From NCBI RefSeq assembly GCF_003018255.1, contig NZ_CP027440.1: 64,000 nucleotides of DNA. The stretch is one strand, 5' to 3'. The translations under genes were made by a program, and so were the position numbers. This stretch comes from Escherichia coli. Its GTDB lineage: Bacteria > Pseudomonadota > Gammaproteobacteria > Enterobacterales > Enterobacteriaceae. The notes beneath the pieces were generated by a model. The model was not told the origin of the DNA. It worked only from the letters and a program-made list of their open reading frames with translations, and ran no database searches. The number at the start of each line of letters is the position of its first letter. The stretch's first letter is position 1. Shown one piece after another: positions 9,451 through 64,000 of this stretch.

Positions 9451-9599
9451 GGAACTTTTTAAGATTATTGCGGAATGACCAAATAAGCACCTAACATCAA
9501 GCAATATTAATTCAAGGTTAAAATCAATAACTTATTCTTAATTATTTGACAGCACTGAATGTCAAAACAAAACCTTCACTCGCAACTAGAATATCTTCC

Positions 9600-13344: not shown

Positions 13345-13428
13345 CACCTGTAGGCCAGATAAGACGCGTCAGTGTCTTATCTGGCATTTGCACGGATTGC
13401 CGGATGCGGCGTAAACGCCTTATCCGTC
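13345..13428. repeat. REP-type palindromic element(s) between convergent rcsB and rcsC
   Basis: GTAGGCCAGATAAGACGCGTCAGTGTCTTATCTGGC ... GCCGGATGCGGCGTAAACGCCTTATCCG, typical REP sequence. Confidence 0.6.
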
Positions 13429-16278
13429 CTACGATTCCCGCGATTTCCTGACCCTCTCGGCATATACCGTCAGCGTCTGTTTTATCACATCCAGCGTTAC
13501 CGGCTTCGACAGGCAGCTGTCCATACCGGACTCCAGACACCGCTGCTTCTCTTCAGCCAACGCATTAGCAGTTACTCCGATTACCGGCAACGTCAGTCCC
13601 AACTGACGAATGCGTTGCGTCAAGCGGTAACCATCCATATTTGGCATGTTGACGTCGCTAAGCACGATATCAATATGATTCTTGCTAAGTACATTAAGCG
13701 CATCGACGCCATCATTCGCGGTTTTACATTGATAGCCCAACGATCCCAACTGATCTGCCAGCAGACGCCGGTTAATCGGATGATCATCCACGACCAGAAT
13801 CATCATATCGTCATTATCGCTGACCGCTTTGTCCGTTAACGGCAGAGCGTTAGCAGGATCGTCGCTCTCCATCTCGATCAAATAAATACGCGCCAACAAT
13901 GCCGGTAGCTCATGCGGGGCAGCCACACTGTGTACCCACTCTCCTGGCGCTTTCTCCAGCGGAATACCAATATGGCGACGACAGAAGGTCACAACCGCTC
14001 TACCCTGCCATTTTTTGCTCACTACCTCGTCAGTGATTAACACATCTTCGGGAGTCGGTTCCTGCCCTTCGTATGTTGTAACGACGATGCCGCTGCGCTG
14101 CAAACTGGTTTCCAGGAACTGACAGAGCGACGCATTGCGGACCGCCAGCCAGCAACGTTTACCACTCAACCCTTCCACGCCTTTTTTCTGCGGGTACTGA
14201 GCGCCGTACAACGGAATACGCACGGTAAACTGGCTGCCCATTCCCGGTTCTGAATCTACCGAGATGTCGCCGTCCATCATGCTGATCAGTTTTTCACAAA
14301 TCGCCAGACCCAGACCGGTCCCCTGGAAGTTACGCTGTACGCCCGTTCCGACCTGGAAGAAGGGATCAAACAAGCGCACCACTTCTTTCGCCGGAATCCC
14401 TACGCCGGTATCGCGAACACGGATAGAGAGATAATCGCCATCAGCGCGAACATGCAGAACTATACAGCCGGTATCGGTGAATTTTATGGCGTTACTCAAC
14501 AGGTTGGAGATGACCTGCTGTAAACGCATCGGGTCGCCATTTAAGGCCACTGGCACATCCGGTTCAATAAAGCAGTACAAGCCTAGCTGCTTGCGTACCA
14601 CCAGCGGTAAATAGTTGGCGGTGATGTGGTTCATCACTTCACGCGGTGAAAACTCACGCGGTTCGATCTTCAACTGTTCCGATTCAATCTTCGAGAAGTC
14701 GAGAATATCGCTGATAATTTTCAACAACAGGCTGGAAGAGTTGTTCATTGCCGTCACCAGACGATCGACGCCTTTCGGTAACTCTTTGGTTTGCAACAGA
14801 TCCAGGTTACCGATAATGCCATACAGCGGCGTTCGCAGCTCATGACTGACGGTGGCAAGGAACATCGATTTTGACTGGCTCGCCTGTTCCGCTGCTTGTG
14901 CCATCTCCTGCAACGACTCTTCCATCTTCACGCGCGAAGAAACATCCACCAGCACACAAATGGCCACGTTTTCATTACGATAGCGCGAATGGACGAAGCT
15001 GATTTGCAGGTTGGTATTGTTGCTGGTCAGGACATCAACAAAATTGACCTGCTGCCCACAGATAATTTGTGTCAGCCGTTGGCGGTCCTCATGCGTAAGC
15101 ATATTGAGATAGGTATGCGCCAGTTCGTTACTTAAAATATTGACGCCATCAGCGGTACGCAAAATGCAGATACCCACTGGCGCGGAGGCGACAATCTTGC
15201 GATTAAACTGCTCATGTTCTTCCAGTCGCAGGGCGTCGCTTTCCGCCGGAATGAAAATACGCCGCTCGTACATCCGCGCGAGAGTAAACAATGCAGCTCC
15301 GGCAAGCACATTCAGCAAAATTGCGTTAAGGATCAACATGCGAATGCGTTCCAGCACCTTATCAACCGGCACCGAATACACGATGCTTAGCGATGAGGGT
15401 GGCAGATTTTTCTTCAGCACCAGCTCCCGGAACCCTTCCGTATAGCCAAACCAGGAGCGTTCCTGCATCCAGCGAGGATCGCCCTTAATTTTGCTTTCTG
15501 GTCCGGTAAGCGAAATCAGGGTATGACCATTTTCATCAAGAATGGTAACCCCCATCGGCAACGTACCAGGTAAGAAAAAGTTCTCCATCCGGATGGTCTG
15601 CTCGACACCCAAAAGCGCCTGCAACCGGTTCGCCAGATAAACTGGCGTCAAGGCGTAAAAATACCCGACGCCAGGGCGCGGACCTTCGCTGATCCAGTAG
15701 AGGTTACTGCCACTATCATCTTGTGGTGCATTTCGATATTTATTAATGCGTTCATGCAAAGCTTTTAACGCGGTATCGCGTTCCACTGGCATATCACGCA
15801 GACCGAAATTGGCCATGCAGAGGTTATCGCTGCCGATTAAAAATACCCGGTTGAGATCGTAAGCCGCAGAAAAATTATCGCGCCAGTAGCGCATAAACCA
15901 CGCCAATGACTCCAGAGAACCTCGCCAGGTGTTACTCATTGCGGAACAATCAGAGTCAGCAAATAGCGGTTCAAACGCAGGCACATCCGTCTGCGTTTCT
16001 CGTCCACGCGGGGAAAGCACACCGTTTTCTGCCGATAAGCGATTTTCAGCTATGTACTTCAGCTCTTTCATCACATCAGAGGTGCGTTGAATAAAGCGCT
16101 GAGCCTGATCGGAACTCAGATTAAATTCCTGACGAATTTCCGATTCTCGCTGATGTAACGCATTAACGATGTAAAAAACGGATGAAAAAGCAATCAACAG
16201 CCAGAGCACTAACGCCAATGCTCTGAACATGTAGCGCGAGGCTTTCAGGGTTGTACGAAAAGAAGCAAGGTATTTCAA
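13429..16278 (-). CDS. rcsC: RcsC hybrid sensor histidine kinase
   Basis: 949-aa ORF; N-terminal TM, HisKA (HELRTPL), HATPase and C-terminal receiver domain. Confidence 0.92.
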   Translation of the reverse strand: MKYLASFRTTLKASRYMFRALALVLWLLIAFSSVFYIVNALHQRESEIRQEFNLSSDQAQRFIQRTSDVMKELKYIAENRLSAENGVLSPRGRETQTDVPAFEPLFADSDCSAMSNTWRGSLESLAWFMRYWRDNFSAAYDLNRVFLIGSDNLCMANFGLRDMPVERDTALKALHERINKYRNAPQDDSGSNLYWISEGPRPGVGYFYALTPVYLANRLQALLGVEQTIRMENFFLPGTLPMGVTILDENGHTLISLTGPESKIKGDPRWMQERSWFGYTEGFRELVLKKNLPPSSLSIVYSVPVDKVLERIRMLILNAILLNVLAGAALFTLARMYERRIFIPAESDALRLEEHEQFNRKIVASAPVGICILRTADGVNILSNELAHTYLNMLTHEDRQRLTQIICGQQVNFVDVLTSNNTNLQISFVHSRYRNENVAICVLVDVSSRVKMEESLQEMAQAAEQASQSKSMFLATVSHELRTPLYGIIGNLDLLQTKELPKGVDRLVTAMNNSSSLLLKIISDILDFSKIESEQLKIEPREFSPREVMNHITANYLPLVVRKQLGLYCFIEPDVPVALNGDPMRLQQVISNLLSNAIKFTDTGCIVLHVRADGDYLSIRVRDTGVGIPAKEVVRLFDPFFQVGTGVQRNFQGTGLGLAICEKLISMMDGDISVDSEPGMGSQFTVRIPLYGAQYPQKKGVEGLSGKRCWLAVRNASLCQFLETSLQRSGIVVTTYEGQEPTPEDVLITDEVVSKKWQGRAVVTFCRRHIGIPLEKAPGEWVHSVAAPHELPALLARIYLIEMESDDPANALPLTDKAVSDNDDMMILVVDDHPINRRLLADQLGSLGYQCKTANDGVDALNVLSKNHIDIVLSDVNMPNMDGYRLTQRIRQLGLTLPVIGVTANALAEEKQRCLESGMDSCLSKPVTLDVIKQTLTVYAERVRKSRES

Positions 16279-21161: not shown

Positions 21162-22480
21162 TTGGTCGCATATCGCGTTTTATGACGCGTTTTGTCAGCC
21201 GGTGGCTTCCCGATCCACTGATCTTTGCCATGTTGCTGACATTGCTAACATTCGTGATCGCGCTTTGGTTAACACCACAAACGCCGATCAGCATGGTGAA
21301 AATGTGGGGTGATGGTTTCTGGAACTTGCTGGCGTTTGGTATGCAGATGGCGCTTATCATCGTTACCGGTCATGCCCTTGCCAGCTCCGCTCCGGTGAAA
21401 AGTTTGCTGCGTACTGCCGCCTCCGCCGCAAAGACGCCCGTACAGGGCGTCATGCTGGTTACTTTCTTCGGTTCAGTCGCTTGTGTCATCAACTGGGGAT
21501 TTGGTTTGGTTGTCGGTGCAATGTTCGCCCGTGAAGTCGCCCGGCGAGTACCCGGTTCTGATTATCCGTTGCTCATTGCCTGCGCCTACATTGGTTTTCT
21601 CACCTGGGGTGGCGGTTTCTCTGGCTCAATGCCTCTGTTGGCTGCAACACCGGGCAACCCGGTTGAGCATATCGCCGGGCTGATCCCGGTGGGCGATACT
21701 CTGTTCAGTGGTTTTAATATTTTCATCACTGTGGCGTTGATTGTGGTGATGCCATTTATCACCCGCATGATGATGCCAAAACCGTCTGACGTGGTGAGTA
21801 TCGATCCGAAACTACTCATGGAAGAGGCTGATTTTCAAAAGCAGCTACCGAAAGATGCCCCACCATCCGAGCGACTGGAAGAAAGCCGCATTCTGACGTT
21901 GATCATCGGCGCACTCGGTATCGCTTACCTTGCGATGTACTTCAGCGAACATGGCTTCAACATCACCATCAATACCGTCAACCTGATGTTTATGATTGCG
22001 GGTCTGCTGCTACATAAAACGCCAATGGCTTATATGCGTGCTATCAGCGCGGCAGCACGCAGTACTGCCGGTATTCTGGTGCAATTCCCCTTCTACGCTG
22101 GGATCCAACTGATGATGGAGCATTCCGGTCTGGGCGGACTCATTACCGAATTCTTCATCAATGTTGCGAACAAAGACACCTTCCCGATCATGACCTTTTT
22201 TAGTTCTGCACTGATTAACTTCGCCGTTCCGTCTGGCGGCGGGCACTGGGTTATTCAGGGGCCGTTCGTGATGCCCGCAGCCCAGGCGCTGGGCGCTGAT
22301 CTCGGTAAATCGGTAATGGCGATCGCCTACGGCGAGCAATGGATGAACATGGCACAACCGTTCTGGGCGCTGCCAGCACTGGCAATCGCCGGACTCGGTG
22401 TCCGCGACATCATGGGCTATTGCATCACTGCCCTGCTCTTCTCCGGCGTCATTTTCGTCATTGGTTTAACGCTGTTCTGA
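21158..22480 (+). CDS. atoE: Short-chain fatty acid transporter
   Basis: 440-aa polytopic membrane protein; overlaps atoA stop by 4 nt. Confidence 0.9.
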   Translation: MIGRISRFMTRFVSRWLPDPLIFAMLLTLLTFVIALWLTPQTPISMVKMWGDGFWNLLAFGMQMALIIVTGHALASSAPVKSLLRTAASAAKTPVQGVMLVTFFGSVACVINWGFGLVVGAMFAREVARRVPGSDYPLLIACAYIGFLTWGGGFSGSMPLLAATPGNPVEHIAGLIPVGDTLFSGFNIFITVALIVVMPFITRMMMPKPSDVVSIDPKLLMEEADFQKQLPKDAPPSERLEESRILTLIIGALGIAYLAMYFSEHGFNITINTVNLMFMIAGLLLHKTPMAYMRAISAAARSTAGILVQFPFYAGIQLMMEHSGLGGLITEFFINVANKDTFPIMTFFSSALINFAVPSGGGHWVIQGPFVMPAAQALGADLGKSVMAIAYGEQWMNMAQPFWALPALAIAGLGVRDIMGYCITALLFSGVIFVIGLTLF

Positions 22481-22510
22481 CGGCAACCCTACAGACAGAA
22501 GGAATATAAA

Positions 22511-23695
22511 ATGAAAAATTGTGTCATCGTCAGTGCGGTACGTACTGCTATCGGTAGTTTTAACGGTTCACTCGCTTCCACCAGCGCCATCGACCTGGGG
22601 GCGACAGTAATTAAAGCCGCCATTGAACGTGCAAAAATCGATTCACTACACGTTGATGAAGTGATTATGGGTAACGTGTTGCAAGCCGGACTGGGGCAAA
22701 ATCCGGCACGTCAGGCGCTGCTAAAAAGCGGACTGGCTGAAACGGTGTGCGGATTCACGGTCAACAAAGTGTGCGGTTCAGGTCTGAAAAGCGTGGCGCT
22801 TGCTGCACAGGCGATTCAGGCAGGTCAGGCACAGAGCATTGTGGCGGGGGGTATGGAAAATATGAGTTTAGCGCCCTACTTACTCGATGCAAAAGCACGC
22901 TCTGGTTATCGTCTTGGAGACGGACAGGTTTATGACGTAATCCTGCGCGATGGTCTGATGTGCGCCACCCATGGTTATCATATGGGGATTACCGCCGAAA
23001 ACGTGGCTAAAGAGTACGGAATTACCCGTGAAATGCAGGATGAACTGGCGCTACATTCACAGCGTAAAGCGGCAGCCGCAATTGAGTCCGGTGCTTTTAC
23101 AGCCGAAATCGTCCCGGTAAATGTTGTCACTCGGAAGAAAACCGTCGTCTTCAGTCAAGACGAATTCCCGAAAGCGGATTCTACGACTGAAGCGTTAGGC
23201 GCATTGCGCCCGGCCTTCGATAAAGCAGGAACAGTCACCGCCGGGAACGCGTCTGGTATTAACGACGGTGCTGCCGCTCTGGTGATTATGGAAGAATCTG
23301 CGGCGCTGGCAGCAGGCCTTACCCCCCTGGCTCGCATTAAAAGTTATGCCAGCGGTGGCGTGCCCCCCGCATTGATGGGTATGGGGCCAGTACCTGCCAC
23401 GCAAAAAGCGTTACAACTGGCGGGGCTGCAACTGGCGGATATTGATCTCATTGAGGCTAATGAAGCATTTGCTGCACAGTTCCTTGCCGTTGGGAAAACC
23501 CTGGGCTTTGATTCTGAGAAAGTGAATGTCAACGGCGGGGCCATCGCGCTCGGGCATCCTATCGGTGCCAGTGGTGCTCGTATTCTGGTCACACTATTAC
23601 ATGCCATGCAGGCACGCGATAAAACGCTGGGGCTGGCAACACTATGCATTGGTGGCGGCCAGGGAATTGCGATGGTGATTGAACGGTTGAATTAA
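22511..23695 (+). CDS. atoB: Acetyl-CoA acetyltransferase (thiolase II)
   Basis: 394-aa thiolase with active-site Cys region (NKVCGSG) and C-terminal GGGQG motif. Confidence 0.92.
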
Positions 23696-26199: not shown

Positions 26200-33046
<6,847 letters not shown>

Positions 33047-33194: not shown

Positions 33195-35822
33195 TTATTC
33201 TTCTTCTGGCTCGTCGTCAACGTCCACTTCCGGAGCGATTTCATCGTCCCCTTCCGCGGCACTGCCGTCGATGGTATCCAGATCTTCCTCGTCAACCGGT
33301 TCAGCAACACGTTGCAGACCCACTACGTTTTCATCTTCCGCAGTACGGATGAGGATCACGCCCTGGGTGTTACGGCCCACGATGCTGATTTCCGAAACGC
33401 GAGTACGTACCAGCGTACCGGCATCGGTGATCATCATGATCTGGTCGCAGTCATCTACCTGCACCGCGCCAACCACTAAACCGTTACGTTCGGTAACCTT
33501 GATGGAGATAACCCCTTTCGTCGCACGCGACTTAGTCGGGTATTCCGCCACTGCGGTACGTTTACCATAACCGTTCTGCGTTGCGGTGAGGATTGCGCCA
33601 TCGCCACGAGGCACGATCAGAGAGACGACTTTATCGCCTTCGCCTAAACGAATACCGCGAACACCGGTGGTGTTGCAGCCCATCGCACGGACAGAAGACT
33701 CTTTAAAGCGCACCACTTTACCTTCGGCGGAGAACAGCATTACTTCGTCTTCGCCGCTGGTCAGGTCAACGCCGATCAGCTCATCGCCTTCAACCAGTTT
33801 GATCGCCACTTTACCGGCGGTACGCAGACGGTTGAACTCGGTGAGGACGGTTTTCTTCACAGTACCGTTAGCGGTCGCCATGAAGACTTTCACGCCTTCT
33901 TCAAACTCGGTCACCGGCAGGATCGCAGTGATACGTTCGTCCTGCTCCAGCGGCAGCAGGTTGACGATCGGACGACCACGCGCGCCACGAGTGGCTTCTG
34001 GTAACTGGTAGACCTTCATCGAATAGACGCGGCCACGGCTGGAGAAGCACAGAATATGGTCGTGGGTGTTCGCCACCAGCAGTCGGTCAATAAAGTCTTC
34101 TTCTTTAATACGTGCGGCAGATTTGCCTTTCCCGCCACGACGCTGCGCTTCGTATTCAGAAAGCGGCTGATACTTCACGTAGCCCTGGTGAGAGAGTGTT
34201 ACCACCACATCTTCCTGGGTGATTAGATCTTCCAGGTTGATGTCAGCGCTGTTGGCAGTGATTTCAGTACGACGTTTGTCGCCGAACTGTTCACGAACCA
34301 GCTCCAGCTCTTCGCGGATCACTTCCATCAGACGATCGGCACTGCCAAGAATACGCAGCAGTTCTGCGATCTGATCCAGCAGCTCTTTGTATTCGTCGAG
34401 CAGTTTTTCATGCTCAAGGCCGGTCAGTTTCTGCAAACGCAGATCCAGAATCGCCTGAGCTTGCTGTTCGGTCAGGTAGTACAGACCATCACGCACGCCG
34501 AACTCTGGCTCCAGCCATTCCGGACGCGCAGCATCATCGCCCGCACGTTCGAGCATGGCGGCAACGTTGCCCAGCTGCCACGGATTAGCCACCAGCGCAG
34601 TTTTCGCTTCTGCAGGCGTCGGCGCATGACGGATCAGTTCGATGATCGGGTCGATGTTCGCCAGCGCTACGGCTAATGCTTCAAGGATATGAGCACGATC
34701 GCGAGCTTTACGCAGTTCGAAAATAGTACGACGAGTCACCACTTCGCGGCGGTGACGAACAAACGCCGCGATGATGTCTTTCAGGTTCATGATCTTCGGC
34801 TGACCATGGTGCAATGCCACCATGTTGATACCGAAAGAAACCTGCAACTGGGTCTGGGAGTAGAGGTTGTTGAGCACAACTTCACCGACCGCATCGCGTT
34901 TCACTTCAATCACGATGCGCATACCGTCTTTGTCAGACTCGTCACGCAGCGCGCTGATGCCTTCCACGCGTTTTTCTTTTACCAGTTCCGCAATCTTCTC
35001 GATCAGGCGCGCTTTGTTTACCTGATACGGAATTTCGTGGACGATAATGGTTTCACGTCCGGTTTTGGCGTCAACTTCCACTTCAGCACGGGCGCGGATA
35101 TATACCTTGCCGCGACCGGTACGGTAAGCTTCTTCAATACCGCGACGACCGTTAATGATTGCCGCCGTCGGGAAGTCCGGCCCGGGGATGTGTTCCATCA
35201 GCCCTTCAATGCTGATGTCTTCATCATCGATATACGCCAGACAACCGTTGATGACTTCCGTCAAGTTGTGCGGCGGGATGTTGGTTGCCATACCTACGGC
35301 GATACCGGAAGAACCGTTCACCAGCAGGTTAGGAATTTTGGTTGGCATGACGTCGGGAATTTTTTCCGTGCCGTCATAGTTATCTACGAAATCGACCGTC
35401 TCTTTTTCGAGATCGGCCATCAGTTCATGGGCAATTTTCGCCAGACGGATTTCCGTATAACGCATTGCCGCCGCAGAGTCGCCGTCGATGGAACCGAAGT
35501 TACCCTGACCGTCTACCAGCATGTAACGCAGCGAGAATGGCTGCGCCATACGGACGATCGTGTCATAAACCGCCGAGTCACCATGGGGATGGTATTTACC
35601 GATTACGTCACCAACGACACGGGCAGATTTTTTATAGGCTTTGTTCCAGTCATTGCCTAGTACGTTCATGGCGTAAAGTACGCGACGGTGTACCGGCTTC
35701 AGGCCATCTCGGACATCTGGCAGCGCACGGCCAACAATGACCGACATCGCATAATCCAGATAGGAGCTCTTCAGCTCTTCCTCAATGTTGACCGGTGTAA
35801 TTTCTCTCGCAAGGTCGCTCAT
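33195..35822 (-). CDS. gyrA: DNA gyrase subunit A
   Basis: 875-aa ORF; N-terminal [18 protein letters not shown], active-site Tyr region, acidic C-terminal tail; QRDR reads [10 protein letters not shown] (Ser83, Asp87). Confidence 0.95.
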
Positions 35823-35968
35823 CTAACCGCTATCCCTCTACTGTATCCCGGATTCAAAGGTCGCAAATTATAACACAGCCGCGCAGTTTGAGGTAAACCT
35901 ATACGCTTTATTCACATCCAATGCCTGATATACTCGTTTGTCTTGCCAATTACGGAGTAGAAGTGCCA

Positions 35969-36691
35969 ATGAATGCCGAAAAATCGCCGGTAAACCATAA
36001 CGTAGACCACGAAGAGATCGCTAAATTTGAAGCTGTCGCCTCCCGCTGGTGGGATCTTGAAGGTGAGTTCAAACCGCTGCACCGCATTAACCCGCTGCGT
36101 CTGGGCTATATTGCCGAGCGTGCTGGCGGTTTATTTGGCAAAAAGGTGCTCGATGTCGGTTGTGGCGGCGGCATTCTGGCCGAGAGTATGGCGCGCGAAG
36201 GTGCGACGGTGACCGGTCTGGATATGGGCTTTGAGCCATTGCAGGTGGCAAAGCTGCACGCGCTGGAAAGCGGCATTCAGGTGGATTACGTGCAGGAAAC
36301 CGTGGAAGAGCACGCGGCAAAACATGCCGGGCAGTATGATGTGGTGACCTGCATGGAGATGCTGGAGCACGTCCCCGATCCGCAGTCAGTGGTCAGAGCC
36401 TGTGCGCAACTGGTGAAACCGGGCGGCGATGTCTTTTTCTCGACGCTTAACCGCAACGGCAAGTCATGGCTGATGGCGGTGGTTGGCGCGGAATATATTT
36501 TGCGCATGGTGCCCAAAGGCACGCATGATGTGAAGAAGTTTATTAAACCGGCAGAGCTGCTGGGCTGGGTGGATCAGACCAGTCTTAAAGAGCGACATAT
36601 AACCGGGTTACATTACAACCCGATCACTAATTCCTTTAAGCTCGGCCCCGGCGTGGATGTGAACTATATGCTGCACACGCAGAATAAGTGA
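35969..36691 (+). CDS. ubiG: UbiG, ubiquinone biosynthesis O-methyltransferase
   Basis: Start set at [10 protein letters not shown] (240 aa); SAM-binding motif VLDVGCGGG. Confidence 0.9.
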
Positions 36692-36699
36692 GGTTGTTG

Positions 36700-36830
36700 T
36701 TTGGATTCATCCGGCAACCGCGCCAATGCCTGATGCGACGCTTGCCGCGTCTTATCAGGCCTACAAATGCTCTCCGTAGGCCTGATAAGGCGTTTACGCC
36801 GCATCCGGCAATAGTGATGGTCAGACAGCG
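36700..36830. repeat. REP-type palindromic element cluster between ubiG and yfaL
   Basis: Repeated GCCTGATGCGACGCTTGCCGCGTCTTATCAGGCCTAC / GCCTGATAAGGCGTTTACGCCGCATCCGGCA units. Confidence 0.6.
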
Positions 36831-36831
36831 A

Positions 36832-39800
36832 TTACCATTTCACCGTCATCGACAAAAACCCTGCCGTCTGGGCAAAATCATCACTCCCTTTCTGCCACGC
36901 CACGCTGCCGCGCAGGGACACTCGCTGACTGATATTGCCCGTGACTCCCACTTTTATTTCACCCCGTTGCTTCACCCCATCGTCACTGATAGTGCTGCCA
37001 TCTTCTTCAATTTCCGTCGCATGGGGATCGTGATAATAATTCAGATCTAATGTTGGTATGACATGAACAGCGGTACGCCATTCGCTGTGTAAACCCAGCC
37101 GCGTCTGAATATCATCACCCTGCGATTGTGACACGCGCGCATGGTTAGCGGCGGTAAAATCATCCTGCTGCACGCCCTGATAAATCACCTGCGCCTGCGG
37201 TTCAATCACCACACCACGCCCCGGTAACCATTGATACCCGGCTTCCAGCGAGGCGATAATCCCCGACGAGTGGTAATGATCCACGCCATCGTCTTGTTCA
37301 GAAACATCATTGTTAAACCACGCATATTGCAGCCAGCTATCCAGCCAGACCCCCTGCTTCTGATTACCGTGCTGATACCAGCTTGAGGTCAGCCCAACGG
37401 CATAACCGTGGTTCTGGTTATCGGCGCGAGTTCCGCTCATATTCGAGCGGCTGTCGCCCTGGTTATCGCTGTAGCCACCAACAATCCCAAGCATCCACTC
37501 GCCATCATCACCCCAGTGCCTGCTAAACAGATCGCCGCTAAGCTGCACCGTAGAAGTGTCTTCATGCTGAGCCAGTTGCCCTGCCGCCGTGTAATGATAA
37601 CGCCCGCCGATAACGCGTAAATTCAGCGTCTGACCATCGCCACCAGCGTGATCGCGTCGCTCCATCACAAATGCCTGATTTGCCGCACGTAGGTTATTAA
37701 AATATCCACCAACTTTGGCATTCAACACCGGCTGGTAAGCAGGCGTAGGTCCAGGGTCGGGGGTTGGGTCGGGATCCGGCGTGGGATCAGGATCTGGAGT
37801 CGGGTCCGGATCGGGCGGCGGCGTCGGAGTGACTTCTTGCGATCGCAGATACCAGTCATTGTTATCTTCCACCAGCGTATAGTCATACGCCCCCATATTG
37901 ACGTAGCCGCTTCCTGCCAGACGGAACTGCGCATTGTTTTGAAACTGCGTGGGATCAGCTGCGAAATCAACCACTTTAATACCTGTAGATGTCGGCTCAC
38001 CAATACCCGTAATGGGGTTAATTACCACGGCCGTGTTGCCAGCAGTATTACCGTTCAATACCAGTTGGTCACTTGCCGAGTCATCGCCGTTTAATTCGCT
38101 GTCGAGCAGTAGCGTACCGCCGCCGGTATAATCACCATTTACCGTCAGCGTGTCGCCAGCGACGCCATTTTGCAGGCTAATCGCACCGGACGTATTGGTC
38201 AGATTGCCATTAACCGTCACGTCGGAAAGATAAGTCAGGCTGTCAGTTTCAAGGTTGGTATTAAGCTCGCCTGTCAGCGTCACGCCATCGGTGGCATTCA
38301 CCAACGTACCGTCGCCGCTAAACAGCGAGGCATCCAGCACCTGGTTCGTATCCTGCTGCGTCAATCGCAACACAGTACCATCGGTTATGTCGATATCGCC
38401 GCCAGAGGTGGCATCGATTGAGCGAATATCCTGATTTTGCCCGGTTTCAAAAACACCGTCTTCCCCCACCCACAGTGAAGAAACATAAGGAATAATATTC
38501 TCCGCTTCACCTTTTAGCGTTCCGTCCTCCACACGTACCGCAGACGTCGCAGTGCCGCTGGCGGTCAACTCCAGCGTACCGCCGCCACTTTTAGTCAACG
38601 TGCTTACGCTATCCAGTTGTTGCCCGGTACTATCCGCCATCAACCCGCCCCATTGCGTATCTACGCCATCCTCAACGTGTATTTCGCCATCAGCGCGCAT
38701 TTCAATATTCCTGCCCTGACCTGTTGTAGCCGAGCGAGTGTCAACATCAGTCGTCACATCCATTTCACTGTGTTGTTGGGGATCTGTGAAGATCACTGAA
38801 CGGTTGTAACTTGTGTCCCCCAATTGCGAATTATCGCTGACTTCAAGCGTACCGGAGGCGATTTGCGTATTACCGAGATAACCGTTGTTATTCGCCAGCG
38901 TTACGCGCTGATCCCCCGCATTAATGACGACATAAACGCCATTCTGGCTGGCATCACTGCCGCCAATATGTAAATCATCGCCACTGCTGATATCAACGAC
39001 ATCATTACTGCCAATCACTGTCCCCCCGCTGCCGCTGATTTGCAGACCGTCATTGTATGAGCTATCGCCATCCCAGGTGGTGAAATCAGAGAGATCCAAT
39101 ACTCCGCCATTTAGCACGATCGATTGCGGATCGCTCTGCATTGCCCGTAAATCGGCCTGATTCCCCGCTAGCGACAATACGGCGTTATCTTCCACCACAA
39201 TATCGCCGGTTAATGCCATCGACTGCGCCCCTGTCAGGAGATAGCTGCCATCTTGCGCTACCGTCAACTGTCCTTCACCCTGAATCGAGCCGGAAAAACC
39301 GCCCTGGTTTACGGTAACATTGCCGCCTGCGTCGATATTCAAAATGCCATTAGCAAAACCGGTTAATGAGTGCACAAACGTTTGTTGTGTATTGCCAACA
39401 TTCAGTTCTGCCTGATACTCAGAATGAACAGTGCTGCCGACCATCAGACCAAAGCAATCCTGCGGATCGCTCTGACAGTGCGTGTCGCCGACATTCATTA
39501 ACTCATCGCTGCGCCCCAACGTCACCTCGCCATTCTGGATACTTATCTCGCCGGTAAACGCATTATTGTCGGCATTGAGGACTAACTCTCCCGCTCCCTC
39601 TTTAACGATGACTCCCGTTCCGGCAAGAGAATCAATCGCGCCATCGTTGCTGGTATTGCCTATTACCAGCGTTTTATCGGCGGCAATGTTAAATTCAGCC
39701 ACACTATGACCGATATACATAAAGCCCCCCGCCGCTGCCGTCGCCGAATGGTCATATCCCGAGGCGCTGTTATTTTCATCAATCATCACACCATTGTTTT

Positions 39801-40596
39801 GGTCATAATTATCATCAACAGAAATATCAATAAGATACGGGGATGTGGTGCTGCTGGTATAAATTGCTCCGCCATAACCTTCTGCATAGTTATTGGTAAA
39901 GGAGGTATTATTAATTATCGTTTTTCCTGAAAGATGTGTGTTATCCGTACTATTATCCGTAACATCAATAGCGCCGCCATCCCCATCACTATAACTTGTT
40001 GATGTATATGCCTGGTTATTATTAAAAGCATCATCACTTAAATAGTCGTCATTATTGATGGTATAAATTGCACCGCCTTTGCCGTCATTAGCGATGTTAT
40101 TGTGAAATACGGCGTTAGTGACACGTAAATCGGCGGCACCGGTATCATTGGTACCGGCAGAATAGATTGCTCCGCCATAGCCTCCTGCAACATTACTGTC
40201 GAAAATAACATTCGCAAGATTTATCGTTGAGTTTTCTTTAGCAAAGATAGCCCCACCATTATTATATTCGCCACTAACCGAGTTATCAGCAAACAGGGTC
40301 ATCCCTGTTTCATTTTGTGGTGAAATCGTAAATTCAGCACTTTGCTGCAAAAATACTGCGCCACCGCTGGCATTATTGGCCATACCCGAAAAAATCAACC
40401 ATTGCCCATCCGCGATGCTCCAGTCCTGCATATTGCCCGAAAGGCTTTGCCTGCTGGCCTGACAGTTCGCTTTGATATCATATCCCTGGCATGAATCGAT
40501 GACCGCTGCGGCACCGTTACCAGAGAAAAGAGATGCAATCATTGACGGGAGTAAAGATAAATACTCCTTGCGTAGAAAGATAATCCGCATATTCAT
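36832..40596 (-). CDS. yfaL: YfaL, AIDA-I-type autotransporter adhesin
   Basis: About 1250-aa ORF with signal peptide, long beta-helical passenger with G/N/T/S-rich repeats, Pro-Thr/Pro-Asp linker and C-terminal beta-barrel ending in W. Start may be the ATG at 40590. Confidence 0.85.
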   Translation of the reverse strand: MNMRIIFLRKEYLSLLPSMIASLFSGNGAAAVIDSCQGYDIKANCQASRQSLSGNMQDWSIADGQWLIFSGMANNASGGAVFLQQSAEFTISPQNETGMTLFADNSVSGEYNNGGAIFAKENSTINLANVIFDSNVAGGYGGAIYSAGTNDTGAADLRVTNAVFHNNIANDGKGGAIYTINNDDYLSDDAFNNNQAYTSTSYSDGDGGAIDVTDNSTDNTHLSGKTIINNTSFTNNYAEGYGGAIYTSSTTSPYLIDISVDDNYDQNNGVMIDENNSASGYDHSATAAAGGFMYIGHSVAEFNIAADKTLVIGNTSNDGAIDSLAGTGVIVKEGAGELVLNADNNAFTGEISIQNGEVTLGRSDELMNVGDTHCQSDPQDCFGLMVGSTVHSEYQAELNVGNTQQTFVHSLTGFANGILNIDAGGNVTVNQGGFSGSIQGEGQLTVAQDGSYLLTGAQSMALTGDIVVEDNAVLSLAGNQADLRAMQSDPQSIVLNGGVLDLSDFTTWDGDSSYNDGLQISGSGGTVIGSNDVVDISSGDDLHIGGSDASQNGVYVVINAGDQRVTLANNNGYLGNTQIASGTLEVSDNSQLGDTSYNRSVIFTDPQQHSEMDVTTDVDTRSATTGQGRNIEMRADGEIHVEDGVDTQWGGLMADSTGQQLDSVSTLTKSGGGTLELTASGTATSAVRVEDGTLKGEAENIIPYVSSLWVGEDGVFETGQNQDIRSIDATSGGDIDITDGTVLRLTQQDTNQVLDASLFSGDGTLVNATDGVTLTGELNTNLETDSLTYLSDVTVNGNLTNTSGAISLQNGVAGDTLTVNGDYTGGGTLLLDSELNGDDSASDQLVLNGNTAGNTAVVINPITGIGEPTSTGIKVVDFAADPTQFQNNAQFRLAGSGYVNMGAYDYTLVEDNNDWYLRSQEVTPTPPPDPDPTPDPDPTPDPDPTPDPGPTPAYQPVLNAKVGGYFNNLRAANQAFVMERRDHAGGDGQTLNLRVIGGRYHYTAAGQLAQHEDTSTVQLSGDLFSRHWGDDGEWMLGIVGGYSDNQGDSRSNMSGTRADNQNHGYAVGLTSSWYQHGNQKQGVWLDSWLQYAWFNNDVSEQDDGVDHYHSSGIIASLEAGYQWLPGRGVVIEPQAQVIYQGVQQDDFTAANHARVSQSQGDDIQTRLGLHSEWRTAVHVIPTLDLNYYHDPHATEIEEDGSTISDDGVKQRGEIKVGVTGNISQRVSLRGSVAWQKGSDDFAQTAGFLSMTVKW

Positions 40597-41284: not shown

Positions 41285-43570
41285 ATGAATCAGAATCTGC
41301 TGGTGACAAAGCGCGACGGTAGCACAGAGCGCATCAATCTCGACAAAATCCATCGCGTTCTGGATTGGGCGGCAGAAGGACTGCATAACGTTTCGATTTC
41401 CCAGGTCGAACTGCGCTCCCACATTCAGTTTTATGACGGTATCAAGACCTCTGACATCCACGAAACCATTATCAAGGCTGCCGCAGACCTGATCTCCCGT
41501 GATGCGCCGGATTATCAGTATCTCGCCGCGCGCCTGGCGATCTTCCACCTGCGTAAAAAAGCCTACGGCCAGTTTGAGCCGCCTGCGCTGTACGACCACG
41601 TGGTGAAAATGGTCGAGATGGGCAAATACGATAATCATCTGCTGGAAGACTACACGGAAGAAGAGTTCAAGCAGATGGACACGTTTATCGATCACGACCG
41701 TGATATGACCTTCTCTTATGCTGCCGTTAAGCAGCTGGAAGGCAAATATCTGGTACAGAACCGCGTGACCGGCGAAATCTACGAAAGCGCCCAGTTCCTT
41801 TATATTCTGGTTGCCGCGTGCCTGTTCTCGAACTACCCGCGTGAAACGCGCCTGCAATACGTGAAGCGTTTTTACGACGCGGTTTCCACATTTAAAATTT
41901 CGCTGCCGACGCCAATCATGTCCGGCGTGCGTACCCCGACTCGTCAGTTCAGCTCCTGCGTACTGATCGAGTGCGGCGACAGCCTGGATTCCATCAACGC
42001 CACCTCCAGCGCGATTGTTAAATACGTTTCCCAGCGTGCCGGGATCGGCATCAACGCCGGGCGTATTCGTGCGTTGGGTAGCCCGATTCGCGGTGGCGAA
42101 GCATTCCACACCGGCTGTATTCCGTTTTACAAACATTTCCAGACAGCGGTGAAATCCTGCTCTCAGGGCGGTGTGCGCGGCGGTGCGGCAACACTGTTCT
42201 ACCCGATGTGGCATCTGGAAGTGGAAAGCCTGCTGGTGTTGAAAAACAACCGTGGGGTTGAAGGCAACCGCGTGCGTCATATGGACTACGGGGTACAAAT
42301 CAACAAACTGATGTATACCCGTCTGCTGAAAGGTGAAGATATCACCCTGTTCAGCCCGTCCGACGTACCGGGGCTGTACGACGCGTTCTTCGCCGATCAG
42401 GAAGAGTTTGAACGCCTGTACACCAAATATGAGAAAGACGACAGCATCCGCAAGCAGCGTGTGAAAGCCGTTGAGCTGTTCTCGCTGATGATGCAGGAAC
42501 GTGCGTCTACCGGTCGTATCTATATTCAGAACGTAGACCACTGCAACACCCACAGCCCGTTTGATCCGGCTATTGCACCAGTGCGCCAGTCTAACCTGTG
42601 CCTGGAAATCGCCCTACCGACCAAACCACTGAACGACGTCAACGACGAGAACGGTGAAATCGCGCTGTGTACGCTTTCTGCTTTCAACCTGGGCGCAATT
42701 AACAGCCTGGATGAACTGGAAGAGCTGGCAATTCTGGCGGTTCGCGCACTCGACGCACTGCTGGATTATCAGGATTACCCGATCCCGGCCGCTAAACGTG
42801 GAGCGATGGGGCGTCGTACGCTGGGTATTGGTGTGATCAACTTCGCTTACTACCTGGCGAAGCACGGTAAACGCTACTCCGACGGCAGCGCCAACAACCT
42901 GACGCATAAAACCTTCGAAGCCATTCAGTATTACCTGCTGAAAGCGTCTAATGAGCTGGCGAAAGAGCAAGGCGCGTGCCCGTGGTTTAACGAAACCACT
43001 TACGCGAAAGGGATCCTGCCGATCGATACCTATAAGAAAGATCTGGATGCCATCGCTAATGAGCCGCTGCATTACGACTGGGAAGCACTGCGTGAGTCAA
43101 TCAAAACGCACGGCCTGCGTAACTCCACGCTTTCTGCTCTGATGCCGTCAGAGACCTCTTCGCAGATCTCTAACGCCACTAACGGTATTGAACCGCCGCG
43201 TGGTTACGTCAGCATCAAAGCGTCGAAAGACGGTATTCTGCGCCAGGTGGTGCCGGACTACGAGCATCTGCACGACGCCTATGAACTGCTGTGGGAAATG
43301 CCGGGTAACGATGGCTATCTGCAACTGGTGGGTATCATGCAGAAATTTATCGATCAGTCGATCTCTGCTAACACCAACTACGATCCGTCACGCTTCCCGT
43401 CAGGAAAAGTGCCGATGCAGCAACTGCTGAAAGACCTGCTCACCGCCTACAAATTCGGGGTCAAAACGCTGTATTATCAGAACACCCGTGACGGTGCTGA
43501 AGACGCACAAGACGATCTGGTACCGTCAATCCAGGACGATGGCTGCGAAAGCGGCGCATGTAAGATCTGA
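41285..43570 (+). CDS. nrdA: Ribonucleoside-diphosphate reductase 1, alpha subunit
   Basis: 761-aa ORF beginning [26 protein letters not shown] (ATP-cone), with the class I RNR catalytic core. Confidence 0.95.
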
Positions 43571-43635
43571 TATTGAGATGCCGGATGCGGCGTAAAATGC
43601 CTTATCCGGCATTAAACTCCCAACAGGACACATTC

Positions 43636-44766
43636 ATGGCATATACCACCTTTTCACAGACGAAAAATGATCAGCTGAAAGAACCGATGTTCTTTGGTCA
43701 GCCGGTTAACGTGGCTCGCTACGATCAGCAAAAATATGACATCTTCGAAAAGCTGATCGAAAAGCAGCTCTCTTTCTTCTGGCGTCCGGAAGAAGTTGAC
43801 GTTTCTCGTGACCGTATCGATTACCAGGCACTACCTGAACACGAAAAACACATCTTTATCAGCAACCTGAAATATCAGACGCTGCTGGACTCCATTCAGG
43901 GTCGCAGCCCGAACGTGGCACTGCTGCCGCTGATCTCGATCCCTGAGCTGGAAACCTGGGTCGAAACCTGGGCGTTCTCAGAAACCATTCACTCTCGTTC
44001 TTATACCCATATCATTCGTAATATCGTTAACGATCCGTCTGTTGTGTTTGACGATATCGTCACCAACGAGCAGATCCAGAAACGTGCGGAAGGGATCTCC
44101 AGCTATTACGATGAGCTGATCGAAATGACCAGCTACTGGCATCTGCTGGGCGAAGGTACCCACACCGTTAACGGTAAAACCGTAACCGTTAGCCTGCGCG
44201 AGCTGAAGAAAAAACTGTATCTCTGCCTGATGAGCGTTAACGCGCTGGAAGCGATCCGCTTCTACGTCAGCTTTGCTTGTTCCTTTGCCTTTGCAGAACG
44301 CGAACTGATGGAAGGTAACGCCAAAATTATTCGCCTGATTGCCCGCGATGAAGCCCTGCACCTGACCGGTACTCAGCATATGCTGAATCTGCTGCGCAGC
44401 GGCGCGGATGATCCGGAGATGGCGGAAATTGCCGAAGAATGTAAGCAGGAGTGCTATGACCTGTTTGTCCAGGCGGCACAGCAAGAGAAAGACTGGGCGG
44501 ATTATCTGTTCCGTGACGGTTCGATGATTGGTCTGAATAAAGACATTCTCTGCCAGTACGTTGAATACATCACCAATATCCGCATGCAGGCAGTCGGTTT
44601 GGATCTGCCGTTCCAGACACGCTCCAACCCGATCCCGTGGATCAATACCTGGCTGGTGTCTGATAACGTGCAGGTTGCTCCGCAGGAAGTGGAAGTCAGT
44701 TCTTATCTGGTCGGGCAGATTGACTCGGAAGTGGACACCGACGATTTGAGTAACTTCCAGCTCTGA
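43636..44766 (+). CDS. nrdB: Ribonucleoside-diphosphate reductase 1, beta subunit
   Basis: Start set at [13 protein letters not shown] (376 aa); di-iron/tyrosyl-radical subunit; REP-like palindrome in the nrdA-nrdB spacer. Confidence 0.93.
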
Positions 44767-47007: not shown

Positions 47008-48366
47008 TTAGCCTCCGTTGCGTTTTTGCAGTAATTCCTGATGGCGACGTTTTTCGCCAATCATCACAACAATCAACAAGATAACCGCGAGAATGCTGCC
47101 GCCAATCATTACCATAAAGCCGCCATCCCAGCCGAAGAAGTCCACGGTGTAGCCAACAATCGCGCTCGCCGCCACCGAACCGCCCAGGTAACCAAACAGC
47201 CCGGTAAAGCCCGCTGCCGTACCTGCCGCTTTTTTCGGTGCCAGTTCCAGCGCATGCAGACCGATCAACATCACAGGACCGTAAATCAGGAAGCCGATAA
47301 CAATCATACAGATCATATCGACGTTCGGATTGCCCGCCGGGTTCATCCAGTAAACGATAGTCGCGATGGTCACCAGTGTCATAAAGAAGACGCCGGTGGC
47401 CCCACGGTTGCCACGGAAGACTTTATCCGACATCCAGCCGCACAGCAGGGTGCCCGGAATGCCCGCATACTCATAGAAGAAGTAGGCCCAGGAGGATTTA
47501 TCCAGCGCGAAGTGTTTCACCTCTTTCAGATAAGTCGGTGACCAGTCGAGGATGCCGTAACGCAGCAGATAAACGAACACGTTGGCGATAGCGATGTACC
47601 ACAGCAATTTGTTCGGCAGCACGTACTGCATGAAGATTTGCTTCGCAGTCAGCTCCTGTTCCGCTTTTTCGTTATAGTCGTCCGGATAATCATTTTTGTA
47701 CTCTTCGATCGGCGGCAGGCCACAAGATTGCGGGGTATCGCGCATCATCGCAAAGGCGAACAGTGCCACCAGAATGGCGCAGAAAGCGGGCATATAGAGC
47801 GCCGCGTGCCAGTCATTGAACCAGGCCATCCCCAGCAGGAACAGCAGCGGCGGAATACCACCACCGACGTTGTGCGCACAGTTCCACACTGACACAATGC
47901 CGCCACGTTCTTTCTGCGACCACCAGTGCACCATAGTACGACCACACGGCGGCCACCCCATCCCCTGGAACCAACCGCAGAGGAACAACAGTACAAACAT
48001 CACCGCAATGCTCGACGTCGCCCACGGCACAAAGCCCATAAACAACATCACTGCCGCCGCCAGAATCAAACCTGCGGGCAGGAAAACGCGCGGATTCGAG
48101 CGATCCGACACCGAGCCCATGATGAATTTCGAAAATCCATAAGCGATCGAGATCCCAGAAAGCGCGAAACCTAAATCACCGCGTGAGAATCCCTGCTCGA
48201 CCAGGTAAGGCATAGCAAGCGCAAAGTTCTTACGAACCAAATAGTAAGCAGCATAGCCAAAGAATATCCCCAGGAAAATTTGCCAGCGCAATCGACGATA
48301 AGTCGGATCGATCTCCGCGGCAGGTAAGCGCGCTTTGTGTGGCGCTGGTTTAAAAATACTCAACAT
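47008..48366 (-). CDS. glpT: Glycerol-3-phosphate:phosphate antiporter (MFS); apparently intact
   Basis: 452-aa 12-TM MFS protein recognised as GlpT; first gene of glpTQ. Confidence 0.93.
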
Positions 48367-52896: not shown

Positions 52897-53856
52897 ATGA
52901 CCGAATCAACAACCTCCTCCCCGCATGATGCGGTATTTAAAACCTTTATGTTCTCGCCCGATACGGCGCGAGATTTTCTCGAAATACATCTGCCAGAGCC
53001 GCTGCGCAAGCTTTGCAACCTGCAAACCTTACGCCTGGAACCCACCAGCTTTATTGAAAAAAGTTTACGCGCTTACTACTAGGATGTTTTGTGGTCGGTG
53101 GAAACCAGCGACGGTGACGGCTATATCTACTGCGTGATTGAACATCAAAGTTCTGCAGAAAAGAATATGGCTTTTCGACTAATGCGCTATGCCACTGCCG
53201 CCATGCAACGTCACCTGGATAAAGGCTATGACAGAGTTCCGCTGGTGGTGCCATTGCTGTTTTATCATGGCGAAACCTCGCCCTACCCGTACTCACTCAA
53301 CTGGCTGGATGAGTTTGACGATCCGCAACTTGCCCGGCAGTTGTACACCGAAGCTTTTCCGTTGGTGGATATCACCATCGTACCTGACGATGAGATCATG
53401 CAACATCGGCGTATAGCTCTGCTGGAACTGATTCAAAAGCATATTCGCGACCGCGATTTAATCGGTATGGTCGACAGGATCACCACGCTTTTGGTTAGAG
53501 GCTTCACTAATGACAGCCAGCTACAAACGCTGTTTAATTATCTGCTGCAATGCGGCGATACCTCCCGTTTCACCCGCTTTATTCAGGAGATTGCCGAACG
53601 TTCACCACTACAAAAGGAGAGATTAATGACTATTGCTGAACGGCTACGGCAGGAAGGACATCAAATTGGCTGGCAGGAAGGTAAATTAGAAGGCTGGCAG
53701 GAGGGGAAATTGGAGGGTTTGCAGAAAGGCAAAGTAGAAGGTATGCATGAACAAGCCATTAAAATTGCCTTGCGCATGCTGGAACAGGGCTTTGAACGTG
53801 AGATTGTGCTGGCGACAACCCAACTCACTGATGCTGATATTCCGAACGGTCATTAA
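52897..53856 (+). pseudogene. yfaD: yfaD/rpnE, Rpn-family (transposase_31 / PD-(D/E)XK) nuclease gene interrupted by one in-frame TAG at 53080-53082
   Basis: 61-codon ORF ([17 protein letters not shown]...LRAYY*) and the following 255-codon ORF (from TTG 53089, [21 protein letters not shown]...) are in the same frame, separated only by a TAG. Confidence 0.6.
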
Positions 53857-56039: not shown

Positions 56040-56464
56040 TTACCTATTCCGGAGCGATAAAGCGAAAGGCTTTTTCCTTCATGGGAACGCACGCTGATAG
56101 TGGCTGATGACTCCACTTTCAAAATGTAATAAGCGCTGCCGTTATCAATAATCCCCAGGTGACATAACAGCCCAGTGGTATCCATCAGTTGCGTCAAACG
56201 CGGTCGAGCCAGTTCCCGGAGATCCATCTTGCTTAACGCATGACCGGAAAGCTCCACCAGCCTGGTCCACAAACAAAAATTTTCCTGGTGATCAAGGCTA
56301 AGAAAACGCTGACGCCTGAGTTCATTAAGCAGCAAATAGGCCGTGCTTTTAGGGATCCCCAATGTGTCAATGATCGTCGCAGCACTACAGGGGCCAATGC
56401 GGGCAATCAAATTGAGAATATCAATAGCCCGTGTCAGGGCGGGAACTTTGCTTGATTCCAACAT
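55922..56464 (-). pseudogene. rhmR: rhmR (yfaX) IclR-family regulator, 3'-truncated remnant
   Basis: 180-codon ORF has an intact IclR-type HTH (TRAIDILNLIARIGPCSAATIIDTLGIPKSTAYLLLNEL) but ends after a partial effector domain with an out-of-frame tail (FSLWYMRFWVFRRIF) that is rhmT sequence read in another frame. Confidence 0.65.
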
Positions 56465-59270: not shown

Positions 59271-59873
59271 TTAGTGGTTAACGAATTCCCCATCCAGATA
59301 AACTTTGCCTTTTTCCACATGCATGACTAAACCATCCAGATAATCAGGTTTAAATGTCGCATCACGCTTATCTTTAGCAATATATGTCAGGCAATGATTA
59401 TGGGTGAAAATAACGATATTTTTATCAGGCGCTTTGCTTTGTAAGTCCTTAATTGCACTATAAATCTCATTACCGCACTGAAGAAGTCGTTTATCTACCG
59501 TCAGCTTTTTACCCGCTGAAAACCAGGTCGCCGACTGAATGGTCCGGACGGTATTACTGGAATAAAGATCGAAATCAGGGATATCAGCACTAAAAGCGTT
59601 GCCCAGTTCACGGGCATCCTGGGTACCTTTAACCGTAATACCTGTTTTATCTGACAAGCATTGGTTGGTTGAACGATCGCAACGTTCAGCATGGCGAAAC
59701 AAAACGACAACCGGATGCTGCTGTGCCAGTCTGGCCAGCGTTTTATTGTCGATACGTGGCAAACCATTGCTACTCCAGGCGGCATGAGTACCCAGTCCGG
59801 CAATTGCAGCGAGCGCCAGTAAAATGATGAAATATTTTTTTGACTTCAACGAAGAGCGGCAAAAAGCTAACAC
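59271..59873 (-). CDS. ais: Ais (PmrG), LPS core heptose(II)-phosphate phosphatase
   Basis: 200-aa product from a GTG start inside the 219-codon ORF ([20 protein letters not shown]...); histidine-phosphatase RHAER motif ([11 protein letters not shown]). Confidence 0.8.
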
Positions 59874-60065: not shown

Positions 60066-60083
60066 CTTAAGGTTAAGTTAATA
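60066..60083 (+). promoter_or_regulatory. Candidate PmrA (BasR) box of the arnB promoter
   Basis: CTTAAG-GTTAAG-TTAAT direct hexamer repeats about 80 bp upstream of arnB, resembling the CTTAAT-N5-CTTAAT PmrA box. Confidence 0.55.
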
Positions 60084-60162: not shown

Positions 60163-61320
60163 ATGGCGGAAGGAAAAGCAATGTCAGAATTTTTGCCTTT
60201 TTCGCGACCAGCAATGGGCGTGGAGGAACTCGCTGCAGTTAAAGAGGTTCTCGAATCCGGTTGGATCACAACCGGTCCGAAGAATCAGGCGCTTGAACAA
60301 GCCTTTTGCCAGTTGACGGGAAATCAGCATGCCATCGCGGTCAGTTCAGCCACCGCCGGAATGCATATCACGCTAATGGCGTTGGAAATTGGCAAGGGCG
60401 ATGAAGTGATTACGCCTTCCCTGACCTGGGTTTCAACCCTCAATATGATTTCCTTGTTGGATGCAACGCCGGTAATGGTGGATGTCGACCACGATACGCT
60501 GATGGTCACGCCTGAAGCGATCGAGTCAGCCATTACGCCACGCACTAAAGCCATCATTCCGGTGCATTATGCCGGTGCGCCAGCAGATATTGACGCCATT
60601 CGCGCCATTGGCGAACGTTACGGCATCGCAGTTATCGAAGATGCTGCCCATGCCGTCGGTACGTATTACAAAGGCCGACATATTGGCGCAAAAGGTACCG
60701 CTATTTTTTCGTTTCACGCCATCAAAAATATTACCTGTGCGGAAGGTGGCCTGATTGTTACAGATAATGAAAACCTTGCCCGCCAGCTACGGATGCTAAA
60801 ATTTCACGGTCTGGGTGTCGATGCCTATGACAGACAAACCTGGGGCCGTGCACCGCAAGCTGAAGTCTTAACGCCGGGCTATAAGTATAATCTGACCGAT
60901 ATTAACGCCGCGATTGCCCTGACCCAGTTAGCCAAATTAGAGCACCTCAACACCCGTCGGCGCGAAATTGCTCTGCAATATCAACAAGCACTGGCAGCTC
61001 TCCCTTTTCAGCCATTAAGCCTTCCCGCCTGGCCGCACGTTCACGCCTGGCATCTGTTTATTATTCGTGTCGATGAACAACGTTGTGGTATCAGTCGCGA
61101 TGCGTTGATGGAAGCGTTAAAAGAAAGAGGCATTGGTACCGGGTTACATTTCCGCGCCGCTCACACACAAAAATATTATCGCGAGCGTTTTCCCACGCTG
61201 TCGTTACCGAATACCGAATGGAATAGCGAACGCATCTGTTCGTTGCCGCTGTTCCCGGATATGACCACCGCCGATGCCGACCGCGTCATCACAGCCCTTC
61301 AGCAACTCGCAGGACAATAA
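60163..61320 (+). CDS. arnB: UDP-4-amino-4-deoxy-L-arabinose:oxoglutarate aminotransferase
   Basis: DegT/ArnB-family PLP aminotransferase; start set at [10 protein letters not shown] (385 aa; alternative ATG at 60181 gives 379 aa). Confidence 0.9.
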
Positions 61321-62291
<971 letters not shown>

Positions 62292-62292
<1 letters not shown>

Positions 62293-64000
62293 TGAAAACC
62301 GTCGTTTTTGCCTACCACGATATGGGATGCCTCGGTATTGAAGCCCTGCTGTCTGCCGGTTACGAAATTAGCGCCATTTTTACCCATACCGATAATCCCG
62401 GTGAAAAAGCCTTTTATGGTTCGGTGGCTCGTCTGGCGGCGGAAAGAGGCATTCCAGTTTATGCGCCGGATAACGTTAATCATCCGCTGTGGGTGGAACG
62501 TATTGCCCAACTCTCACCAGAGGTGATTTTCTCTTTTTATTATCGCCATCTTATTTGCGACGAGATTTTGCAGCTCGCTCCCGCAGGTGCATTTAATCTG
62601 CACGGTTCGCTGTTACCAAAATATCGTGGTCGCGCGCCGCTGAACTGGGTGCTGGTGAACGGTGAAACGGAAACTGGCGTTACATTGCACCGAATGGTGA
62701 AACGTGCCGATGCCGGGGCCATTGTGGCGCAACTGCGCATTGCCATTGCGCCAGACGATATCGCCATTACGCTGCATCATAAATTGTGCCATGCCGCGCG
62801 CCAGCTACTGGAACAGACATTACCCGCCATTAAACACGGTAATATTCTGGAAATCGCCCAGCGCGAAAACGAAGCCACCTGTTTTGGTCGCAGAACACCG
62901 GAAGACAGTTTCCTCGAATGGCATAAACCGGCATCCGTGCTGCACAACATGGTGCGTGCCGTTGCCGATCCGTGGCCGGGTGCCTTCAGCTATGTTGGTA
63001 ATCAGAAATTTACCGTCTGGTCGTCACGCGTGCATTCTCATGCGCCCGCAGCACAACCGGGGAGCGTGATTTCTGTTGCGCCACTGCTGATTGCCTGTGG
63101 CGATGGCGCGCTGGAAATCGTCACCGGACAGGCGGGCGACGGCATTACTATGCAGGGCTCGCAATTAGCGCAGACGCTGGGCCTGGTGCAAGGTTCACGC
63201 TTGAATAGCCAGCCTGCCTGCACCGCCCGACGCCGTACTCGGGTACTCATCCTCGGGGTGAATGGCTTTATTGGCAACCATCTGACAGAACGCCTGCTGC
63301 GCGAAGATCATTATGAAGTTTACGGTCTGGATATCGGCAGCGATGCGATAAGCCGTTTTCTGAATCATCCGCATTTTCACTTTGTCGAAGGCGATATCAG
63401 TATTCATTCCGAATGGATTGAGTATCACGTCAAAAAATGTGATGTCGTCTTGCCGCTGGTGGCGATAGCCACGCCGATTGAATATACCCGCAACCCACTG
63501 CGCGTATTTGAACTCGATTTTGAAGAGAATCTGCGCATTATCCGCTACTGCGTGAAGTACCGTAAGCGAATCATCTTCCCGTCGACTTCAGAAGTTTATG
63601 GGATGTGTAGCGATAAATACTTCGATGAGGACCATTCTAATTTAATCGTCGGCCCGGTGAATAAACCACGCTGGATTTATTCGGTGTCTAAACAATTACT
63701 TGATCGAGTGATCTGGGCCTATGGCGAAAAAGAGGGTTTACAGTTCACCCTCTTCCGCCCGTTTAACTGGATGGGGCCTCGACTGGATAACCTTAATGCG
63801 GCACGAATCGGCAGCTCCCGCGCTATTACGCAACTCATTCTCAATCTGGTAGAAGGTTCACCGATTAAGCTGATTGATGGCGGAAAACAAAAACGCTGCT
63901 TTACTGATATTCGCGATGGTATCGAGGCGTTATACCGCATCATCGAAAATGCGGGAAATCGCTGCGACGGCGAAATTATCAACATTGGCAATCCTGCGAA
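62292..64000 (+). CDS. arnA: ArnA, bifunctional UDP-glucuronate decarboxylase / formyltransferase (3' end beyond window)
   Basis: ATG at 62292 overlaps the arnC stop (TAATG); translation [38 protein letters not shown]..., formyltransferase domain then the start of the NAD-dependent decarboxylase domain; runs to the window end. Confidence 0.9.

Follow-up and report, generated by a model that had tools for sequence, protein, structure and literature searches.

We analysed a window of 64,000 nucleotides of Escherichia coli DNA, which includes gyrA, encoding DNA gyrase subunit A, together with glpT, ais and the beginning of the arn operon. The gyrA coding sequence is located at 33195..35822 on the minus strand. 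The open reading frame listing and the translation give an ATG start codon at 35822 and 875 codons plus a stop codon. The translated protein was aligned with K-12 MG1655 GyrA (b2231, 875 aa; NP_416734.1; UniProt P0AES4) over the full length without any gap, and 874 of the 875 residues were identical. Besides the length and the quinolone resistance-determining region (QRDR), the two genes share their neighbours yfaA and ubiG and the upstream region. The spacer between gyrA and the start of the divergent ubiG (35823..35968, minus strand) is as in K-12 at 146 of 146 nt, which supports the use of the same start codon as in K-12. The order yfaA-gyrA-ubiG is conserved in K-12 and also in strain JNE112863, whose annotation places gyrA at identical coordinates.

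Protein family models agreed with this identity. The gyrA equivalog model TIGR01063 matched the protein with 1309.7 bits (cutoff 877) and NF004043 with 1258.7 bits (cutoff 902), and the best match among solved structures was E. coli GyrA (6rks), covering residues 1-875. Codons 121 and 122 (35457..35462, minus strand) are CGT TAT in the translation and encode Arg-Tyr; Tyr122, with Arg121 before it, is the DNA-cleaving catalytic tyrosine of E. coli gyrase. In the C-terminal domain, the translation has the GyrA-box QRRGGKG at residues 560-566 (34125..34145, minus strand), the motif that tells gyrase from the topoisomerase IV protein ParC.

Because ParC has a similar motif, we also considered whether the region might be parC or another type IIA topoisomerase paralogue. 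The parC_Gneg model gave 581.5 bits, under its cutoff of 628.9, and ParC models in general stayed below their cutoffs, while the gyrA equivalog model scored over its cutoff. Together with the GyrA-box, the yfaA-gyrA-ubiG synteny and the numbering verified by alignment, this leaves a ParC identity with a negligible probability, and the gene is gyrA.

The gap-free full-length alignment to K-12 GyrA fixes the residue numbering, so the codons of gyrA were counted without error. The first-pass annotation had named a miscount of codon positions as the thing that could overturn its reading of the QRDR; re-translation and the K-12 alignment gave no sign of one, and an alternative start is ruled out by this alignment and the identical upstream region.

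State of the quinolone resistance-determining region

The QRDR of gyrA, whose limits were reportedly set at codons 67-106 by Yoshida et al. in 1990, lies at 35505..35624 on the minus strand and is wild type by translation. An alignment of this region to a reference had been proposed as a check, and when it was run against K-12 GyrA, residues 67-106 were identical. The reverse complement of 35562-35576 reads TCG GCG GTT TAT GAC, which encodes S-A-V-Y-D; extended to 35582, it reads GGT GAC TCG GCG GTT TAT GAC, which encodes GDSAVYD at residues 81-87. The first-pass annotation had given TCG for codon 83 and GAC for codon 87 within this motif, and on re-translation from the ATG its coordinates, codons and motif were all right.

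Codon 83 (35574..35576, minus strand) is TCG and encodes Ser, as in the wild type, where the S83L allele would have TTG. Codon 87 (35562..35564, minus strand) is GAC and encodes Asp, also as in the wild type, where resistance alleles would have AAC, GGC or TAC. Fluoroquinolone-resistant gyrA alleles (S83L, D87N/G/Y) concern the same gene and the same codons, but the window carries neither change. The absence of these substitutions had already been claimed, and it was borne out by the direct reading of Ser83 and Asp87 and by a whole QRDR with the amino acids of K-12. Codons 83 and 87 were read directly from a conserved gene, so chance is not an issue for this call.

Further positions, read one by one against K-12, were all in the reference state: A51, A67, G81, D82, A84, Q106, A119 and A196. 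Inside the QRDR, the only differences from K-12 are silent changes at codons 85 (GTT), 91 (CGT) and 100 (TAC), and a fourth silent change is located just beyond it at codon 111 (TCC). Nothing in the window sequence contradicts the reading as wild-type gyrA. We conclude that this is almost certainly the chromosomal gyrA of E. coli with its QRDR in the ancestral, quinolone-sensitive state.

Variation of gyrA and mosaic structure of the window

Compared with K-12, the gyrA gene of the window has 59 nucleotide differences. Of these, 58 are synonymous, which points to strong purifying selection on a functional gene. D678E, located outside the QRDR, is the only replacement: in the alignment and the translation, codon 678 (33789..33791, minus strand) is GAA, encoding Glu, instead of the GAC of K-12, encoding Asp.

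D678E lies in the C-terminal DNA-wrapping domain of GyrA, and we considered whether it could alter the behaviour of gyrase or the quinolone susceptibility. It is the sole amino-acid difference from K-12, it is listed beside resistance mutations in surveillance tables (PMC10638923), and it appears in a machine-learning resistance study (PMC7067475). However, the change from Asp to Glu is conservative and is about 570 residues away from the drug pocket. It also tracks the sequence types ST405, ST38, ST448 and ST1193; a Thai survey tabulates it in these four and in ST2011, and one ST38 isolate has D678E without a change at S83 or D87 (PMC10638923). Moreover, the exact protein of the window, with D678E, is very common, being found on at least 1000 contigs under the name DNA gyrase subunit A of E. 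coli. An effect of D678E is thus very improbable, and the pattern over sequence types suggests that it is a lineage polymorphism.

At the DNA level, the best gyrA match among complete RefSeq E. coli genomes had 99.4% identity, and none of these genomes had 100%. It means that the gyrA of the window is a slightly novel combination of silent sites, while the protein is not new. The closest complete genomes are those of JNE112863 and JNE23-011 (NZ_AP045072.1 and NZ_AP045067.1), in which the QRDR is also wild type. The gyrA of JNE112863 differs from that of the window at 17 nucleotides, 14 of them within nt 1521-1734 of the gene, and at residue 535 JNE112863 has Ile, in contrast to the Thr of the window and of K-12.

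The window is colinear with JNE112863 over positions 1-49999 with 99.5% identity, and the best matches of the flanks were JNE112863 and JNE23-011 (99.6-99.8%). The right-hand third is closest to another strain, 2017.09.02CC (99.2%). Judged from these matches, the window is a typical recombinational mosaic of E. coli.

The differences from JNE112863 are gathered in short dense patches with 10-17 differences per kb, compared with 0-1 elsewhere. These patches are at 34089-34302 (nt 1521-1734 of gyrA), about 5001-8000, 22001-23000, 29001-30000 and 36001-36700, and by their density they look like short recombination imports. The cluster within gyrA might mark one such import, and together with D678E it might mean that the C-terminal half of this essential gene, a drug target, is exchanged between E. 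coli lineages independently of the QRDR. We put this forward only tentatively and hold it to be rather doubtful. If it is true, it matters only as a caveat for the use of gyrA alleles as clonal markers.

Other genes and features of the window

The first-pass annotation had also made side claims on glpT, the arn operon and a PmrA box, which are mostly right and slightly overstated. The glpT gene (47008..48366, minus strand) encodes a glycerol-3-phosphate transporter of 452 aa. It was described as intact, and indeed it has full length and no internal stop, and its product, assigned to the GlpT family (NF008433/TIGR00712), matched NF008433 with 976 bits (cutoff 748). It was also described as the fosfomycin uptake route, which says too much, because GlpT is one of two routes and the other, UhpT, is encoded outside the window. 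Compared with K-12, GlpT has the substitutions L297F, T348N, E443Q, Q444E and E448K. The last three are recognised as leaving the function of GlpT unaffected, and L297F is classed as neutral, though not functionally investigated, in a source that does not cover T348N (PMC10269928).

We identified an intact ais gene (59271..59873, minus strand) encoding an LPS core heptose(II)-phosphate phosphatase of 200 aa, with I15F compared with K-12 and 392 bits to NF011945 (cutoff 142). On the plus strand are arnB (60163..61320, 385 aa by the K-12 start, intact), arnC (61324..62292, 322 aa, intact) and arnA (62292..64000), which is cut by the window end after the first 568 of 660 codons; tblastn with K-12 ArnA covered residues 1-568. 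The operon, arnBCADTEF (pmrHFIJKLM), continues with arnD, arnT, arnE and arnF beyond base 64000. So the description of the arn operon as present and unremarkable holds only for ais, arnB, arnC and codons 1-568 of arnA, and its other four genes are outside the window.

A direct repeat resembling a PmrA/BasR box, CTTAAGgttaaGTTAAT, is found at 60066..60082 (plus strand) between ais and arnB, 81 nt before the ATG of arnB. It is arranged as CTTAAG-gttaa-GTTAAT, and K-12 and strain 2017.09.02CC have exactly the same sequence. In the Salmonella consensus, the PmrA box is a direct hexamer repeat of the type CTTAAT-N5-CTTAAT, with a 5-nt spacer, located upstream of a PmrA-activated promoter. With the relaxed pattern CTTAAK-N5-BTTAAT, this repeat was the only match without mismatch in the 64 kb window. 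The strict pattern YTTAAK-N5-YTTAAK had no match in the window, and the repeat itself does not fit it because its second half-site begins with G. When the ais-arnB spacer was scanned for promoters, matches were no more numerous than in shuffled sequence. The putative PmrA box of the first-pass annotation is therefore real as a repeat that is the same as in K-12, and it departs from the strict pattern; going by its similarity, PmrA may bind there.

Left of gyrA, two structured RNAs were the only Rfam matches of the window over the gathering score: the antisense RNA MicF upstream of ompC (9599-9692, plus strand; 116.8 bits) and naRNA4 (13353-13429, minus strand; 70 bits), which lies between rcsB and rcsC and is a nucleoid-associated RNA derived from REP sequences. 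The cluster yfaP-yfaQ-yfaS-yfaT-yfaA is directly downstream of gyrA. In this cluster yfaS (26200-30819, minus strand) is a long intact open reading frame of 1539 aa from the first ATG, and its counterpart in JNE112863 is annotated as an alpha-2-macroglobulin family protein of 1504 aa.

On the other side of gyrA, the autotransporter adhesin gene yfaL/ehaC (36832-40596, minus strand) had 83% protein identity to K-12, compared with 97.7-100% for the genes from nrdA through glpC; its product is a hypervariable surface protein. The spacer between nrdA and nrdB (43570-43636) is about 65 nt long in the window and in JNE112863. In FDAARGOS_1287 it has about 145 nt, and in K-12, whose annotation places the small gene yoaM there, it has 233 nt. 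This difference is a variable intergenic insertion.

The gene rpnE/yfaD (52897-53856, plus strand) is of the 319-aa type, in which 20 aa are inserted compared with K-12, and it is annotated in relatives as an 'ISNCY family transposase'. A premature stop at codon 62 (53080-53082), where 2017.09.02CC has Ser, makes it a pseudogene in the strain of the window. The rhamnonate-utilisation cluster (54903-56464) is broken, with about 1.74 kb of the K-12 sequence missing. This deletion takes all of rhmD, the C-terminal third of yfaX, of which only residues 1-165 are left, and 54 codons from the start of yfaV. Its junction is at about 55971-55982, within a 12-bp overlap of two BLAST segments. FDAARGOS_1287 has the same large deletion, and what is left of the cluster there is listed in its annotation as a shortened MFS transporter and a partial IclR pseudogene. 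A second, small deletion in yfaV at about 55200-55207 removes 48 nt (16 codons) which are kept in FDAARGOS_1287 and 2017.09.02CC.

Wild-type gyrA and quinolone susceptibility

GyrA provides the breakage-reunion core of gyrase, in which Tyr122 is the catalytic residue. Ser83 and Asp87 are located on helix alpha-4, which lines the pocket where a fluoroquinolone inserts into the cleaved DNA. The C3/C4 keto-acid of the drug chelates Mg2+, and the water molecules around this ion form hydrogen bonds with Ser83 and Asp87, giving a water-metal ion bridge. Biochemistry of E. coli gyrase supports Ser83 and Asp87 as the anchors of this bridge, and among resistance changes S83L and D87N/Y are the commonest (PMC9917921). 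The protein of the window has both anchors, so the enzyme is expected, on this published biochemistry, to bind quinolones and to be poisoned normally, and the gyrA locus would confer no target-mediated resistance.

The frequency of this allele was estimated in complete E. coli genomes. The gyrA gene was found in one copy in each of the 5425 genomes with a match. The exact 51-nt sequence of the window over codons 74-90 was present in 2011 of the 5425, and the silent variant of K-12 (GTC at codon 85) in a further 639, so by nucleotide sequence at least 2650 genomes (49%) are wild type over these codons. At most 2775 genomes are changed from both wild-type alleles; the counts are exact 51-nt matches obtained via identity bands, and this number is an upper bound which includes rare silent variants. 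Most of these genomes presumably have S83L with or without D87N. The wild-type QRDR is thus one of two common states in E. coli.

A wild-type gyrA does not by itself establish the susceptibility of the strain, because the window does not include parC, parE, gyrB, the efflux regulators or any plasmid gene. The strain could have a wild-type QRDR and still be less susceptible to quinolones through such determinants, for example qnr, aac(6')-Ib-cr, qepA or oqxAB, up-regulation of efflux through marR, acrR or soxR, or changes in gyrB or parC/parE; a wild-type call would then be misleading as a statement on susceptibility. The window, of which all genes from 1 to 64000 belong to the napF-to-arnA segment of the chromosome, holds none of these loci, so they must be elsewhere. 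Resistance is common in E. coli, as up to about half of the complete genomes depart from the wild type over gyrA codons 74-90. On the other hand, gyrase is the primary quinolone target of E. coli, plasmid and efflux mechanisms alone cause only a low-level reduction of susceptibility, and no resistance gene or mobile element was seen within the window. We consider reduced susceptibility through determinants outside the window to be unlikely, and keep to the reading of a quinolone-sensitive gyrA.

The finding of a wild-type gyrA is correct and belongs to textbook biology; the exact protein is already catalogued, and no new biological question comes from it. Its practical value hinges on parC, parE, gyrB and the plasmids of the same genome. 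The wild-type gyrA excludes the usual first step of target-mediated fluoroquinolone resistance, and its use is in routine resistance genotyping, where it marks a strain without this first-step target resistance, which is present in roughly half of complete E. coli genomes.
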